A stretch of 27,148 nucleotides of DNA, from positions 1 to 27,148 of the forward strand of contig CAYVSA010000027.1 in the NCBI GenBank assembly GCA_964454175.1, in the 5' to 3' direction. The translations under genes and the position numbers were made by a program. Within the stretch, counting starts at the first letter, position 1; every line of letters begins with the position of its first letter. Source of the DNA: an uncultured Pseudomonadota bacterium (GTDB lineage: Bacteria; BMS3Abin14). The notes beneath the pieces were generated by a model. It searched no databases. It was not told the DNA's origin and saw only the letters and a list, made by a program, of their open reading frames with translations. Of this stretch, positions 7,804 to 11,045 are shown piece after piece.

Positions 7804-8418
7804 ATGGCCGAAGTCTATGAGATTACAATCTGGGCCCGCGGGGTTATCCAGGATATGGAGGGACGTCATCTGTCGCTCCTCATGGCGAACTCAGCGGACA
7901 AGGACGGCAAGTTTGTCCAGGCGTGGGACAATTACGCCGATCTGCCGGACAGAGTTGGAGTTCCTCTTCGAAAGTATGCCCGCATCAGCGACGAAGAGAT
8001 AGAGATGCGCTACGACTACGAAAACCTGAACCCCAACATGTCCGTAGTTATGGATGACACCATTGTGAAGGGCATTGATATCCTGTACGGCATGCCCAAG
8101 GGCGGAGTTCTTGTTGTCAACACGAAGAGAACTCCCGATGAGATCCTAAAGTTCATACCTAACAAGGATATTCTTTCGGCCCTGGTCTGTGTGGACGCCG
8201 AAGGCATTTCAGGTGCCATGTCCATGGAGGATGTCGACTTTATGGGATCCGAAGGTGGTGTGGAAACTGCCGAAGTCGGAAAGGGTCTATCCGCGCCGTT
8301 AGTTGGTGCTGCGGCCAAGGCTGTCGACCTGCTGACCCTGGACAGCCTGGTGGCTGTTGCCGCCAACAAGGAAGGCGTCAAGGCTGGTTACGAGCAGGCT
8401 ATGGTGAAAGCCCTTTAG
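7804..8418 (+). CDS. Oxalate oxidoreductase-like 2-oxoacid:ferredoxin oxidoreductase, gamma subunit (domain III)
   Basis: ITIWARGV, QAWDNYADLPDRVGVPLRKYARIS, VLVVNTKR and GSEGG closely resemble the N-terminal part of the Moorella OOR delta chain as recalled. SD AAGGAGG. Confidence 0.85.
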   Translation: MAEVYEITIWARGVIQDMEGRHLSLLMANSADKDGKFVQAWDNYADLPDRVGVPLRKYARISDEEIEMRYDYENLNPNMSVVMDDTIVKGIDILYGMPKGGVLVVNTKRTPDEILKFIPNKDILSALVCVDAEGISGAMSMEDVDFMGSEGGVETAEVGKGLSAPLVGAAAKAVDLLTLDSLVAVAANKEGVKAGYEQAMVKAL

Positions 8419-8435
8419 ACAAGAAGGAGATGATC

Positions 8436-8786
8436 ATGAGCAAAAAGAAGTATTGTGAAAAGTTCAATGTTCCGGAGAACCTCCAGGTTCCGATGGGCGC
8501 CTGCATCAAGGCCCCTGTCAAGGAACAGAGGATGATGATAACCGGAAACTGGAGAACTGTGCGTCCCGTTATCGACCACGAGAAATGCACGCTTTGCCTG
8601 AACTGCTTCATCTACTGTCCCGACGGCAGCTGGCACCTTGACGAGAAGGAAGAGCGAATGGTCTGGAACGCAGATTTCTGCAAGGGCTGCCGTATTTGCA
8701 TTAATGAATGCACAGTTGACGCTCTTTCAGGTGTTGACGAACTGGAGTTCAAGGGCGGCGTTGTCCGGCTGGATGTCCCATTTTAA
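8436..8786 (+). CDS. oorD: Oxidoreductase delta subunit, 2x[4Fe-4S] ferredoxin domain
   Basis: TGNWRTVRPVID, CTLCLNCFIYCP, CKGCRICINEC. SD AAGGAG (8424-8429) favours ATG 8436 over 8430. Confidence 0.88.
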   Translation: MSKKKYCEKFNVPENLQVPMGACIKAPVKEQRMMITGNWRTVRPVIDHEKCTLCLNCFIYCPDGSWHLDEKEERMVWNADFCKGCRICINECTVDALSGVDELEFKGGVVRLDVPF

Positions 8787-8804
8787 TTTAGGAGGGCTAC
8801 GAAA

Positions 8805-9998
8805 ATGGCGAAAGAAATGTTTTTGGCCGGCTGTTCCGCTGCAGCGTATGGAGCGAAGCTGGCACGAGTGGAAGTTATATGTTCATACCCCATCCGTCCT
8901 TACACAGGCATCATGATGGAGCTCTCCAAGCTGGTCGCTAACGGGGAACTTGATGCTGAGTTCGTTCATGGCGAGGGAGAGCATGCACAGGTTTCAGTGA
9001 CCTACGCTGCCTCCGCCGCTGGTGCAAGGGCTTTCACAGGCAGCTCCGGTGTAGGCGTGGCCTATGCCATGGAGTGCTACTCCCCGGCCGCAGGCGGACG
9101 CCTGCCCTGTCAGATGTCCATCGCTGACCGTGCACTCGATCCTCCGGGAGACTTTGGGTCGGAGCACACTGACGCTATGAGCATCCGTGACCAGGGATGG
9201 ATCATGGGCTGGGCCGAGACGCCCCAGGAAGTCCTGGACAACACCATCCTGTACTACAGGATAGGTGAGGACCACAGGGTTCTGCTGCCCCAGTTCTGCT
9301 GCCAGGACGGATACTTTGTATCCCACATCCCTGACAAGGTTATCATGCCAGAACAGTCCCAGGTGGATGAGTTCCTCCCACCCTACACGCATCCCCATCC
9401 CCTGGATCCAACAAGGCCCATCTCACATGGTCCGCAGATCTTCCCCGACCAGGGCCCTGCGATCGACCTTCAGAGAGCACAGGCAATGGTGGATACACCA
9501 CCGGTTATCGCTGAGATAGTCGGCGAGTTCAACGAAGTGTTTGGGCGCGACTACAGCCCCTTCCTGGACGAGTATAGAACTGACGACGCTGATTTTGTCT
9601 TCTTCATCCAGGGTGGACATGCAAGGACAGCCCGCTACGCAGTGAACCACCTGCGCGACAGGGGCATCAAGGCCGGTTTGGTCAAGCTGCGGTTTGTGAG
9701 GCCATTTCCAACAGAAGCCGTTGCTGAGACCCTCTCCAAGTTCAAGGCTGTCGGTACTATCGAGACCAGCACATCTTACGGTGGAGCCATGAAGGGTGGA
9801 AACCTCATCCATGAGGTTCGCTCTTCCCTTTACGACGTTCCAAATCCACCAGTAGTTACCTCTTTCATGGCCGGTCTGGGTGGAGAGGTTGTCTCCCTTG
9901 AGGAGTTCTACAGCATGGCAAAGGTCCTCTCCGAAGCCGCAAAGAAGGGTTCGGCTGACCAGTATGTCTACTGGCTGAACTTCGACAATGGAGTGTAA
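8805..9998 (+). CDS. oorA: Oxalate oxidoreductase-like alpha subunit
   Basis: SYPIRPYT (Arg31, where PFOR has YPITP), GEGEH (Glu59), DRALDPPGDFG (Arg109, Asp116) and GPQ (Gln211). Numbering is identical to the Moorella OOR alpha chain as recalled. Confidence 0.88.
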   Translation: MAKEMFLAGCSAAAYGAKLARVEVICSYPIRPYTGIMMELSKLVANGELDAEFVHGEGEHAQVSVTYAASAAGARAFTGSSGVGVAYAMECYSPAAGGRLPCQMSIADRALDPPGDFGSEHTDAMSIRDQGWIMGWAETPQEVLDNTILYYRIGEDHRVLLPQFCCQDGYFVSHIPDKVIMPEQSQVDEFLPPYTHPHPLDPTRPISHGPQIFPDQGPAIDLQRAQAMVDTPPVIAEIVGEFNEVFGRDYSPFLDEYRTDDADFVFFIQGGHARTARYAVNHLRDRGIKAGLVKLRFVRPFPTEAVAETLSKFKAVGTIETSTSYGGAMKGGNLIHEVRSSLYDVPNPPVVTSFMAGLGGEVVSLEEFYSMAKVLSEAAKKGSADQYVYWLNFDNGV

Positions 9999-10064
9999 CT
10001 CGAATTAACTTTAAGCCTGTCGGTCGCGCCAAACGGGCCGACATGTGAAAAAGGAGAATACATA

Positions 10065-11045
10065 ATGGCGAAACCAGTAGAAACTCAGGATCTCGAGCGG
10101 GTCAAATCGATCCGCAGGGTGCCCCAGGAGGAGTACTATGTACCTGGTCACCGGACTTGCCAGGGATGCGGCCCAGCTCTTTGCTACAAGCTGGTGTCCA
10201 AGGCCACCGGTCCGGACTCGATCTTCCTCGGACCCACAGGCTGCATGTACGTTGCTAACACAAGCTACCTGTGCAGCCCCTTTTCATATCCGTGGATTCA
10301 CTGCCAGATCACGAATGCCGGCGCCATGGCGTCTGGTATAGAAGCTGCCTACCAGGTCCTCATCAGGAAGGGCAAGTACAAGGGCAAGCTTCCCAACATC
10401 GTGGTAATGGCCGGTGACGGCGGATCTATCGACATCGGCCTGCAGGCCATGTCCGGAATGATGTACAGGGGTCACGATGCACTCTTCATCATGTATGACA
10501 ATGAGTCATACGCCAATACGGGTATTCAGACATCACCAATGTCACCCTATGGGGCAAACACCACTTTCACACCTCCCGGCAAAGCAATACCCGAGGGCAA
10601 GGTTCTCTTCCCGAAGGATGCGCCGCAGTTGGTGATCGGAGGCCACCCTGCAGTGAAGTACGTTGCGACGGCTTCGCTGGCCTATCCGGTAGATCTCATC
10701 AACAAGGTTAGGAAGGCACTGAACCAGGTGGGCCCGACTTTCATGCACATCCACTGCCCGTGCCCCAAGGGCTGGCTCTTTGATGAAAGCAAGACTATCG
10801 AGGTCGCAAAAATGGCCATCGAGACAGGTATGTGGACCAATTATGAGTGGGAAGACGGCGAGTACACTTACCAGCATATTCCGAAAGAGTACAAACCCGT
10901 CAAGGAGTACATGAAGACGCAGCAGCGCTTTGCCCACCTGACCGATGAGCACATCGCAAAGATGCAGGCTTTCATCGATGCCAAGATCAAGGCACCGGGC
11001 AAGCCGGTTCCGCTGCCCGTACACTCGCCCCGACAGGCTGACTGA
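10065..11045 (+). CDS. oorB: Oxalate oxidoreductase-like beta subunit (TPP and [4Fe-4S] binding)
   Basis: [31 protein letters not shown] motif GDGG...[17 protein letters not shown]. Confidence 0.88.

Follow-up and report, generated by a model that had tools for sequence, protein, structure and literature searches.

A four-polypeptide member of the oxalate oxidoreductase family predicted in an uncultured Pseudomonadota bacterium

Four adjacent genes at 7804-11045 of the DNA analysed here (the window: positions 1 to 27,148 of contig CAYVSA010000027.1, assembly GCA_964454175.1, from an uncultured Pseudomonadota bacterium) probably encode a CoA-independent, TPP- and [4Fe-4S]-dependent oxalate:ferredoxin oxidoreductase (oxalate oxidoreductase, OOR; EC 1.2.7.10). 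The enzyme would be an orthologue of the Moorella thermoacetica OOR assembled from four polypeptides, and its genes would belong to one regulated unit extending from approximately 4620 to 16530; we put the probability of this reading at about 0.85. Judged by its sequence, the operon has good support as a member of the OOR family, though an unremarkable one: it is near kin of the Moorella enzyme and has the same active-site residues. To our knowledge, OOR alone among enzymes can split oxalate in the absence of oxygen and without CoA, a reaction that gives low-potential electrons, and we know of no characterised OOR other than that of Moorella.

The four ORFs are intact and lie on the + strand in the order gamma (7804-8418, 204 aa), delta (8430-8786, 118 aa), alpha (8805-9998, 397 aa) and beta (10065-11045, 326 aa), with every frame open and an AGGAG-type ribosome-binding site before each. 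Their matches to chains of the Moorella structure assign domain III to gamma and domain V, the ferredoxin domain with its two [4Fe-4S] motifs, to delta (both matching 5c4i_B), domains I and II to alpha (5c4i_A) and domain VI, which would bind TPP and the proximal [4Fe-4S] cluster, to beta (5c4i_C). All domains of the Moorella enzyme (PDB 5C4I, 5EXD, 5EXE; NF045790-NF045792) are also found in the window. In the Moorella (alpha-beta-gamma)2 complex, domains III and V are fused in one 315-aa chain, whereas here they are two polypeptides, which is a difference of packaging and not of domain content. A gap of 11 nt and a change of frame separate the gamma and delta ORFs, which have a ribosome-binding site each, and the two genes are separate in all 77 related loci that have both. 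The first-pass annotation had spoken of a gamma chain as in Moorella; here that chain corresponds to two ORFs. (Of the Moorella locus tags Moth_1590-1595, Moth_1591 and Moth_1592 are named in the one paper found for them.) The spacer between alpha and beta (9996-10064, + strand) contains a hairpin with a minimum free energy of -17.8 kcal/mol (z = -2.0), which 8 of 200 shuffles equal or better; with its stability barely above that of the shuffles, it makes a weak candidate for a functional element and was set aside.

The alpha subunit carries the residues that set OOR apart. YPIRP occupies residues 28-32, with the Arg31 codon at nt 8895-8897; the Arg109 codon is at 9129-9131; the loop DPPGDFG occupies residues 112-118 (nt 9138-9158), with Asp116 at 9150-9152 and Phe117 adjoining; and the codon for Gln211, which we take to be one of the OOR active-site residues, is at 9435-9437. 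These motifs, like GSEGG in gamma, lie in the ORFs and at the residue positions to which the first-pass annotation had assigned them. A HMMER alignment pairs residues 3-394 of the window alpha with 3-394 of 5c4i_A and the motifs residue for residue, placing Arg31, Arg109, Asp116, Phe117 and Gln211 at identical numbering in the two proteins: YPIRPYTGIM and GPQI are common to both, DPPGDFG 112-118 is identical, and IADRALDPPGDFGSEHTDA in the window stands opposite IADRTLDPPGDFGEEHTDA in 5c4i_A. PMC5020499 calls YPIRP unique to OOR and states the roles of Arg31, YPIRP and Asp116; Arg109-alpha, which binds the substrate carboxylate, is described there as the single one of these residues conserved with other OFORs.

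All 120 of the nearest protein-database matches carry the combined signature [YF]PIRP / R109 / DPPGDFG / Q211. It occurs in none of the non-PIRP OFOR representatives, which mostly have YPITP together with varied loops. Among 119 OFOR alpha rows, PIRP is restricted to the OOR clade and four sister representatives, and Gln211 is Q throughout the core OOR clade and variable elsewhere. The position of Arg109, in contrast, is R in 118 of the 119 rows and, since nearly all OFORs have it, does not discriminate between OOR and the others. Arg31, Arg109 and Asp116 had been put forward together as part of an oxalate-specific active site; Arg109 is not specific in this way. A scan of species-representative genomes with OOR-specific peptides located at least 546 related loci. 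That residues 114-121 and 32-39 do not vary among the best 80 of these is partly built in, because the loci were fished with PGDFGSEH and PYT[GA][ILV]MME. Moorella is not among these best 80 of at least 546 loci, and the window's closest kin, all of them uncultured bacteria, carry the labels Proteobacteria SZUA, "bacterium bin676" and Deferrimicrobiaceae. Conserved synteny extends to MAGs whose labels include Methylomirabilota, Nitrospirota, Thermodesulfobacteriota and Myxococcota.

An OFOR phylogeny had been named at first pass as an analysis that could overturn the assignment. In a FastTree tree of 124 rows the PIRP rows lie on one side of a branch with SH-like support of 99, and the window falls inside a 30-row core OOR clade (SH-like 99); in an IQ-TREE tree of 51 rows the 17-row core clade lies on one side of a branch with SH-aLRT support of 100. 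Both trees set the window apart from all YPITP rows, with support of 97-99; it groups with OOR, and not with the pyruvate or 2-ketoisovalerate enzymes (PFOR and VOR). The OOR clade is anchored in these trees by P0121, the Moorella sequence itself not being among the rows; P0121 is the deepest member of the core clade, scores 583 on the OOR-alpha equivalog (cut-off 500) and gives 512 bits to 5c4i_A. The sister PIRP proteins (P0130, P0134, P0229 and P0222) also have Arg at the Thr position, as well as Asp112, and are on the OOR side of the SH-like 99 branch. They differ from the window in having Ala, Asn or Ser for Asp116; Gln211 is kept in P0130 and P0222 and is replaced by His in P0134 and by Val in P0229. 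Three of them score 399, 385 and 262, all below the OOR-alpha cut-off, and P0229 has no match at E <= 1e-70. The window is not part of this set.

Scores against individual chains and family models run the same way. For the window alpha, 5c4i_A gives 529 bits and 9bt4_B, the highest-scoring PFOR, 223; beta gives 502 to 5c4i_C against 270 to the PFOR beta 9bt4_C; gamma 172 to residues 13-207 of 5c4i_B against 48 to PorC 2raa and 43 to the 9BT4 chain; and delta 85 to residues 227-314 of 5c4i_B against 62 to PFOR 9BT4. Because the motif is located in proteins scoring as high as the first three of these against OOR chains, it is not there by chance. Alpha passes the OOR equivalog NF045791 (NCBIfam OxalOxredalpha) with 597 bits over a cut-off of 500, covering profile positions 1-394 of 395, and none of the PorA, VorA and PadG models reaches its cut-off with this protein (PorA 312 for a cut-off of 550, VOR alpha 257 for 646). 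Beta, with 583 bits, is 7 short of the cut-off of 590 for NF045792 (OxalOxredbeta); the next family, PorB, gives 319 for a cut-off of 405. The fused-chain equivalog NF045790 (OxalOxreddelta, 316 positions, cut-off 230) matches gamma at 13-206 with 215 bits and delta at 226-315 with 88; each falls below the cut-off because the chain is split and the model was built on the fused one. Residues at the Moorella numbering, a signature common to the nearest proteins and OOR scores far above those to PFOR together bear out the first-pass proposal of an oxalate-type active site.

In gamma, GSEGG (residues 148-152, nt 8245-8259) aligns with GAEGA of 5c4i_B, and Glu150, counted along the printed alignment, pairs with chain-B Glu154, which we take to be the functional plug-loop residue; the comparison with Moorella chains that had been advised at the outset extends from the alpha motifs to this Glu. 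All 76 gamma rows, the window among them, have the motif DF[MS]G[STG]EG with its Glu. Just before the plug-loop segment the window gamma has four more residues than the Moorella chain (SMED, 140-143), an insertion common to only some relatives that could alter the behaviour of the plug loop. (The plug loop of OOR is mentioned in passages of PMC5020499 that do not name its Glu.) Delta has two CxxCxxCxxxC cluster motifs, CTLCLNCFIYCP at 53-64 and CKGCRICINEC at 84-94, and beta has GDG at 117, NESYANTG at 146 and Cys32, Cys35, Cys60 and Cys233, all of them aligning to identical Moorella residues. Beta and delta together have intact cofactor motifs: the one for TPP and the Cys ligands of three [4Fe-4S] clusters.

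By homology with the Moorella enzyme, oxalate would be drawn into a positive pocket made by Arg31-alpha, which takes the position of Thr in the OFOR motif YPITP, and Arg109-alpha. TPP, held between alpha and beta, would attack it, and the switch loop DPPGDFG would then bring in Asp116-alpha, leading to decarboxylation ("bait and switch"). The domain-III loop with Glu150-gamma would close the site that CoA uses in PFOR, and two electrons would travel by way of one beta cluster and two delta clusters to ferredoxin, with 2 CO2 as the product.

The proposed unit would begin at a promoter-like TTGACA-17-TATAGT on the + strand at 4620-4648, the best sigma-70-type match in 4300-18700 (11 of 12 positions, a consensus match only), which is preceded by a terminator-like hairpin at 4402-4422, after the PEPCK gene, and is the probable start of the oxalate operon. 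Three perfect + strand palindromes, TGGTCNGACCA, lie at 4648-4658, 4734-4744 and 4769-4779 (also consensus matches only), the first of them abutting the -10 hexamer; they are the only TGGTNNNACCA sites in the whole window. Such sites recur: 59 related loci extend 350 nt or more upstream of the AAA gene described below, and 23 of them have one or more at -350 to +20, compared with 10 sites elsewhere in all 59. GntR-family operators have the form T.GT...AC.A, and the palindromes are probably operators of the regulator encoded at 7015-7749 (+ strand, 244 aa; Pfam GntR and FCD), a GntR-family protein with an FCD effector domain, whose nearest NCBIfam models, NanR, LldR and PdhR, are all below cut-off. 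The loose pattern TNGTNNNACNA is barely enriched (8 in the window against 4.2 expected; 3 of 100 shuffles reach 8); the argument for operators lies in the three strict palindromes and in the related loci where such sites recur. A regulator of this type lies upstream of OOR on the same strand in 52 of 59 related loci. Oxalate would presumably be the inducer.

Behind these palindromes, at 4808-6979 on the + strand, lies the gene of a Cdc48/VAT-type double-ring AAA+ ATPase (723 aa; Pfam CDC48_N and two AAA domains). The protein scores 799.6 on TIGR01243 CDC48 (cut-off 802.65) and gives 692 bits to yeast Cdc48 and 607 to VAT; both Walker A and B motifs are present, as are the pore loops KFYG and KWVG. 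In 55 of 59 related loci, from several phyla, the gene stands beside OOR, on its strand and at most 4.5 kb upstream; here it lies behind the same predicted operator-bearing promoter, and its product has Walker motifs that are intact and pore loops that are aromatic. From this it is tempting to suppose that the ATPase serves as a dedicated, "activase"-like OOR maintenance factor, remodelling or stripping inactivated enzyme or aiding assembly of the four subunits; we consider this unlikely. The inactivated forms could include a dead-end TPP adduct, oxidised clusters and a stuck plug or switch loop. A 2017 paper by Pierce et al., to go by its title, reportedly concerns suicide inactivation of the Moorella OOR by pyruvate, in which case a maintenance factor would have something to repair.

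Downstream of beta, on the + strand, are the genes of a tripartite tricarboxylate-type (TTT) transporter (Pfam TctC, TctB and TctA), TctC at 11308-12285, TctB at 12339-12854 and TctA at 13089-14612. TctCBA follows OOR directly on the same strand in 24 of the 45 loci with enough sequence, and TctA is found somewhere in 28 of these 45. The system is probably the one that takes up oxalate. A CitMHS/ArsB-superfamily anion transporter (15054-16397, + strand, 447 aa; Pfam CitMHS, 174 bits), which occurs in only 4 of the 34 loci of at least 19 kb, would complete the unit. Its probable end is a + strand terminator-like hairpin at 16501-16530 (a consensus match only), a 13-pair stem followed by a T run and the longest stem among the + strand sites scanned. 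The literature searched contained no paper in which "oxalate oxidoreductase" occurs together with TctC, TTT transporters or CDC48.

The substrate is likely to be oxalate; it is favoured over oxamate and glyoxylate because the signature residues are all identical to those of an oxalate-using enzyme and because the FCD regulator and TTT transporter make a carboxylate-type context. That oxalate is indeed oxidised but arises intracellularly, a GGT-like hydrolase releasing it from an oxalyl-amide or some other precursor that is imported in place of free oxalate, seems quite improbable. A GGT-family amidohydrolase is encoded downstream at 16639-18429 and a Liv/Urt-type ABC transporter at 22084-26872, and in several lineages the vicinity of OOR repeatedly contains GGT-like, PPDK, PEPCK and Usp genes, variously arranged. 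However, the transporters co-oriented directly with OOR, TctCBA and CitMHS, are of the carboxylate type, 19 of the 34 loci of at least 19 kb have no GGT homologue, and common descent of the closest lineages may account for the recurrence.

The same downstream gene, with GGT homologues somewhere in the other 15 of those 34 loci, could point to an OOR fold and mechanism applied to an analogue, a possibility raised at first pass: oxamate, glyoxylate or a further small acid of the 2-oxo or dicarboxylic kind; the Moorella OOR is also said to turn over some other 2-oxoacids slowly. We regard an analogue as the physiological substrate as very improbable: the signature is that of an oxalate-using enzyme and is invariant in all 120 relatives, a second Arg is not needed for a neutral amide or aldehyde, and the GGT-like gene lies beyond the terminator-like hairpin. 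A role of its product as an oxamate amidohydrolase is not supported: the protein scores 491 bits to 6j3a and only 82 to 5hft, which we take to be the Klebsiella HpxW-type oxamate amidohydrolase.

An ordinary four-subunit pyruvate or 2-ketoisovalerate:ferredoxin oxidoreductase of the CoA-dependent porGDAB/vorGDAB type is scarcely credible: PFOR 9BT4 (presumably from Methanosarcina acetivorans) and its porGDAB kin share with the window the gamma-delta-alpha-beta order, four separate subunits, the domain layout, the cofactors and an aligned, retained Arg109, and several sources name close relatives of the window "pyruvate ferredoxin oxidoreductase", but 9BT4 has YPITP for YPIRP and SAPINIW for DPPGDFG, PorA and PorB stay below their cut-offs, the PFOR scores of alpha and gamma are less than half those to OOR with that of beta also well short, and the YPITP rows split off in both trees.

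The window takes the complete OOR active-site signature beyond the acetogens, to a lineage that is uncultured. With gamma and delta split and beta just below its cut-off, automated pipelines will often mislabel such operons as PFOR. The OOR route seems to have been overlooked in the literature searched: the term "oxalate oxidoreductase" is absent from a 2024 environmental review of oxalotrophy, and a survey of the gut microbiome set OOR aside for lack of information. Given this oversight and the number of loci found, OOR may be an under-counted oxalate sink in anoxic sediments and groundwater.

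Positions 7804 to 11045 of the window encode an ortholog of oxalate oxidoreductase (OOR), a member of the wider 2-oxoacid:ferredoxin oxidoreductase (OFOR) group. The first-pass annotation had placed an oxidoreductase on this span, which opens at the gamma start codon, closes at the beta stop codon and holds four plus-strand ORFs, each preceded by an AGGAG-type ribosome-binding site: gamma (domain III; 7804-8418, 204 aa), delta (domain V; 8430-8786, 118 aa), alpha (8805-9998, 397 aa) and beta (10065-11045, 326 aa). The Moorella OOR, the only one characterised, is described in PMC5020499 as having three chains, one of which (315 residues) contains both domain III and domain V. 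In the window, in contrast, gamma and delta are separate ORFs in different frames with 11 nt between them, and four-subunit packaging and gene order like those of porGDAB-type enzymes are thus combined with OOR chemistry. The single gamma chain of the annotation therefore gives way to two genes, although the GSEGG segment attributed to it is present. Among the 80 best related loci, the split recurs in all 77 that have both parts (three lack one part). The beta cofactor motifs (GDG at 117, NESYANTG at 146, and Cys32, 35, 60 and 233) align with identical residues of the Moorella beta chain (PDB 5c4i_C), and delta carries two CxxCxxCxxxC motifs. The alpha-beta spacer (9996-10064, 66 nt) folds as a hairpin (-17.8 kcal/mol, z = -2.0), and its length is similar in most related loci.

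The alpha chain has the motifs previously read from it: YPIRP at residues 28-32 (Arg31), Arg109, DPPGDFG at 112-118 (Asp116, Phe117) and Gln211. HMMER alignment pairs residues 3-394 of the Moorella alpha chain (5c4i_A) with residues 3-394 of the window protein, so that residue numbers are equal in the two, and the signature segments are identical or nearly so. In gamma, GSEGG lies at residues 148-152 and aligns with GAEGA of the fused Moorella chain, 5c4i_B; counted along the printed alignment, Glu150 pairs with Glu154. The window gamma differs from Moorella in a four-residue insertion, SMED, directly ahead of this plug-loop segment; some of the gamma rows of related loci share the insertion and others lack it.

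The alpha residues had been put forward as an oxalate-specific set. That description does not fit Arg109, which is R in all but 1 of 119 OFOR alpha rows and is named in PMC5020499 as the sole residue conserved with OFORs generally. The rows behind this comparison come from an exhaustive HMMER search: of its 150 best representatives at 50% identity, those of full length (350-440 aa) were kept, and 20 close matches were added. Most other OFOR alphas among the 119 rows have YPITP, with loops unrelated to DPPGDFG; outside the core clade described below, Arg takes the place of the Thr in only four representatives (P0130, P0134, P0222 and P0229), all without Asp116. This sister group, which lies outside the window, keeps Asp112, has Ala, Asn or Ser instead of Asp116 and scores under the OOR cut-off; it may be a candidate uncharacterised enzyme for a different small anionic substrate. 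Closer to the window, all of the 120 best protein matches from a 5.8-billion-protein collection (71-86% identical to the window alpha) carry the signature, 118 as YPIRP/R/DPPGDFG/Q and two as FPIRP/R/DPPGDFG/Q. Across 81 rows (the best 80 related loci and the window), alpha positions 31, 109, 112-121 and 211 never vary, in part by construction at 114-121 and 32-39, because the search that yielded these loci used the peptide patterns PGDFGSEH and PYT[GA][ILV]MME. All 76 gamma rows compared have the plug-loop Glu.

All four subunits score higher against the Moorella enzyme than against the best non-OOR chain in the PDB: alpha 529 bits versus 223 (PFOR alpha, 9bt4_B), beta 502 versus 270 (PFOR beta, 9bt4_C), gamma 172 (5c4i chain B, residues 13-207) versus 48 (PorC, 2raa) and delta 85 (chain B, residues 227-314) versus 62 (PFOR delta, 9bt4_G). 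Alpha passes the NCBI OOR-alpha equivalog (597; cut-off 500) and beta falls slightly short of its counterpart (583; cut-off 590). Against the OOR 'delta' equivalog, which models the fused chain, gamma scores 215 bits and delta 88, and the gamma/delta split makes the model miss both halves (cut-off 230). The NCBI Por, Vor and Pad models all fall far under cut-off for the window subunits. In a FastTree phylogeny of 124 alpha rows, a single branch (SH-like support 99) sets all 34 rows with Arg for Thr apart from the others, and the window lies inside a core clade of 30 rows (support 99), nearest to the protein row P0001 and to L003 and L001, loci of MAGs labelled Proteobacteria SZUA. A second tree (IQ-TREE, LG+G4, short search, 51 alpha rows) separates the 17 core rows from the rest with SH-aLRT 100, and the 30 YPITP-type rows with 97. 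The trees contain no Moorella sequence; the link between the core clade and the characterised enzyme is P0121, the deepest member of that clade, which passes the OOR-alpha model (583 against 500) and matches 5c4i_A with 512 bits. Both trees thus group the window alpha with OOR and not with PFOR/VOR, the pyruvate and 2-ketoisovalerate enzymes, as the attribution of an oxalate-type rather than PFOR-type active site had implied. A generic PFOR/VOR is contradicted by the YPIRP motif, the model scores and the trees, and on these grounds can safely be set aside.

Gibson et al. are said to have found covalent oxalyl- and carboxy-TPP intermediates in OOR, its independence of CoA, and functional roles for Gln211, Phe117 and the plug-loop Glu. 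PMC5020499 places Arg31 in a YPIRP motif that it describes as unique to OOR, and has Arg31 and Asp116 work with the plug loop in a 'bait and switch' mechanism. By homology to Moorella, the window enzyme would use the same Arg31/Asp116 bait and switch with its own plug loop. That an OOR-type enzyme here acts instead on an analogue such as oxamate or glyoxylate is distinctly improbable, since the pocket is identical to that of the oxalate enzyme. Nor does the GGT-family Ntn-hydrolase at 16639-18429 (596 aa) favour that substrate: it most resembles PDB 6j3a (491 bits), whereas 5hft, the oxamate amidohydrolase HpxW, scores only 82 bits, so that a link to that role is not supported. Of the 34 related loci of at least 19 kb, 15 have a GGT homologue in the vicinity of OOR, at varying positions and in varying orientations.

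The unit as a whole is most likely an oxalate-inducible operon for oxalate uptake and CoA-independent oxidation to CO2, with reduction of ferredoxin. Orthology, signature and synteny have been demonstrated; oxalate as the substrate and as the transported compound, induction by it and the extent of the operon are inferred. A terminator-like hairpin (4402-4422) is followed by the best promoter-like site of the region, the near-consensus TTGACA-17-TATAGT (4620-4648). Three perfect TGGTCNGACCA palindromes (4648, 4734 and 4769), the first abutting the -10 element, probably serve as operators for the GntR/FCD regulator encoded at 7015-7749. Related loci, compared by tblastn of the window proteins on the best 80 in subsets of 59, 45 and 34 set by available sequence, support an operator role, since 23 of 59 have TGGTNNNACCA between -350 and +20 relative to the AAA start codon, and it occurs just 10 times elsewhere in all those loci. 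A GntR gene lies upstream of OOR in 52 of the 59. A weaker palindrome, TTGTACGACTA, is found at 7769, ahead of gamma.

The presumed head of the operon (4808-6979) encodes a double-ring AAA+ ATPase with a CDC48_N and two AAA domains (692 bits to yeast Cdc48, 607 to VAT), both rings having intact Walker A and Walker B motifs as well as aromatic pore loops (KFYG and KWVG). HbYX is the proteasome-docking motif; the C-terminus, VKH, has no Tyr and therefore lacks it. Of the 59 loci whose upstream sequence is long enough, 55, from several phyla, have a same-strand AAA gene no more than 4.5 kb upstream of OOR; two of the other four (L027 and L033) have it ~7 kb downstream. Its sequence marks the product as a true Cdc48/VAT-type unfoldase, conserved at the operon head, and possibly a dedicated maintenance or assembly factor for OOR.

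Downstream of OOR are genes for TctC, TctB and TctA (11308-14612), a transporter that would bring in oxalate; TctC and TctA directly follow OOR in 24 of 45 related loci, and TctA is found anywhere in the locus in 28. The last gene before a terminator-like hairpin with a 13-pair stem (16501-16530), the likely limit of the operon, encodes a CitMHS/ArsB-superfamily transporter (15054-16397), present in only four of the 34 related loci of at least 19 kb. Characterised members of the CitMHS family carry metal-citrate complexes, so that uptake of a metal-oxalate complex is conceivable. Release of oxalate inside the cell from an amide precursor is unlikely, if somewhat less so than an analogue substrate; the operon's own transporters do not point to it.

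The operon is flanked by genes for Usp (2019-2501), GTP-dependent PEPCK (2536-4332) and PPDK (pyruvate phosphate dikinase; 18715-21585, minus strand), which are near OOR again in the closest lineages in differing arrangements; among the 34 loci of at least 19 kb, PPDK is found in 15, Usp in 12 and PEPCK in four. Shared ancestry alone could account for this recurrence, or else a part in C3/C4 carbon handling while the cell grows on oxalate. Opposite the PPDK gene, on the plus strand, runs a 654-aa ORF (18613-20577) without family match, in all likelihood a shadow ORF. Liv/Urt-type ABC transporter genes occupy 22084-26872. At the other end, a TPP riboswitch (Rfam RF00059, 73.9 bits; 409-503) lies directly ahead of thiC, listed at 501-1952; its TTG start at 501 overlaps the aptamer. 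Since alignments to ThiC models begin only near residue 63, translation probably starts downstream of position 501.

The host, an uncultured bacterium, is most likely an anaerobe with relatives among the SZUA, bin676 and Deferrimicrobiaceae MAGs; among the related loci listed, the closest alpha is 87% identical to that of the window. These loci, all from MAGs, are labelled Methylomirabilota, Nitrospirota, Thermodesulfobacteriota, Myxococcota, Deferrimicrobiota, Betaproteobacteria and others. The family was known beforehand: curated models exist, and some sources call close relatives 'oxalate oxidoreductase subunit alpha'. What is new is the window member, with its four-subunit packaging. In the literature searched, the term 'oxalate oxidoreductase' occurs in just 34 papers; it was not found in an environmental oxalotrophy review, an eLife 2021 gut survey omitted OOR for lack of information, and an mSphere 2025 paper attributes the OOR pathway to 'oxdD'. 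Against this slight coverage the breadth of the OOR family stands out: at least 546 loci encoding relatives, of at least 599 pattern matches, are confirmed by tblastn.
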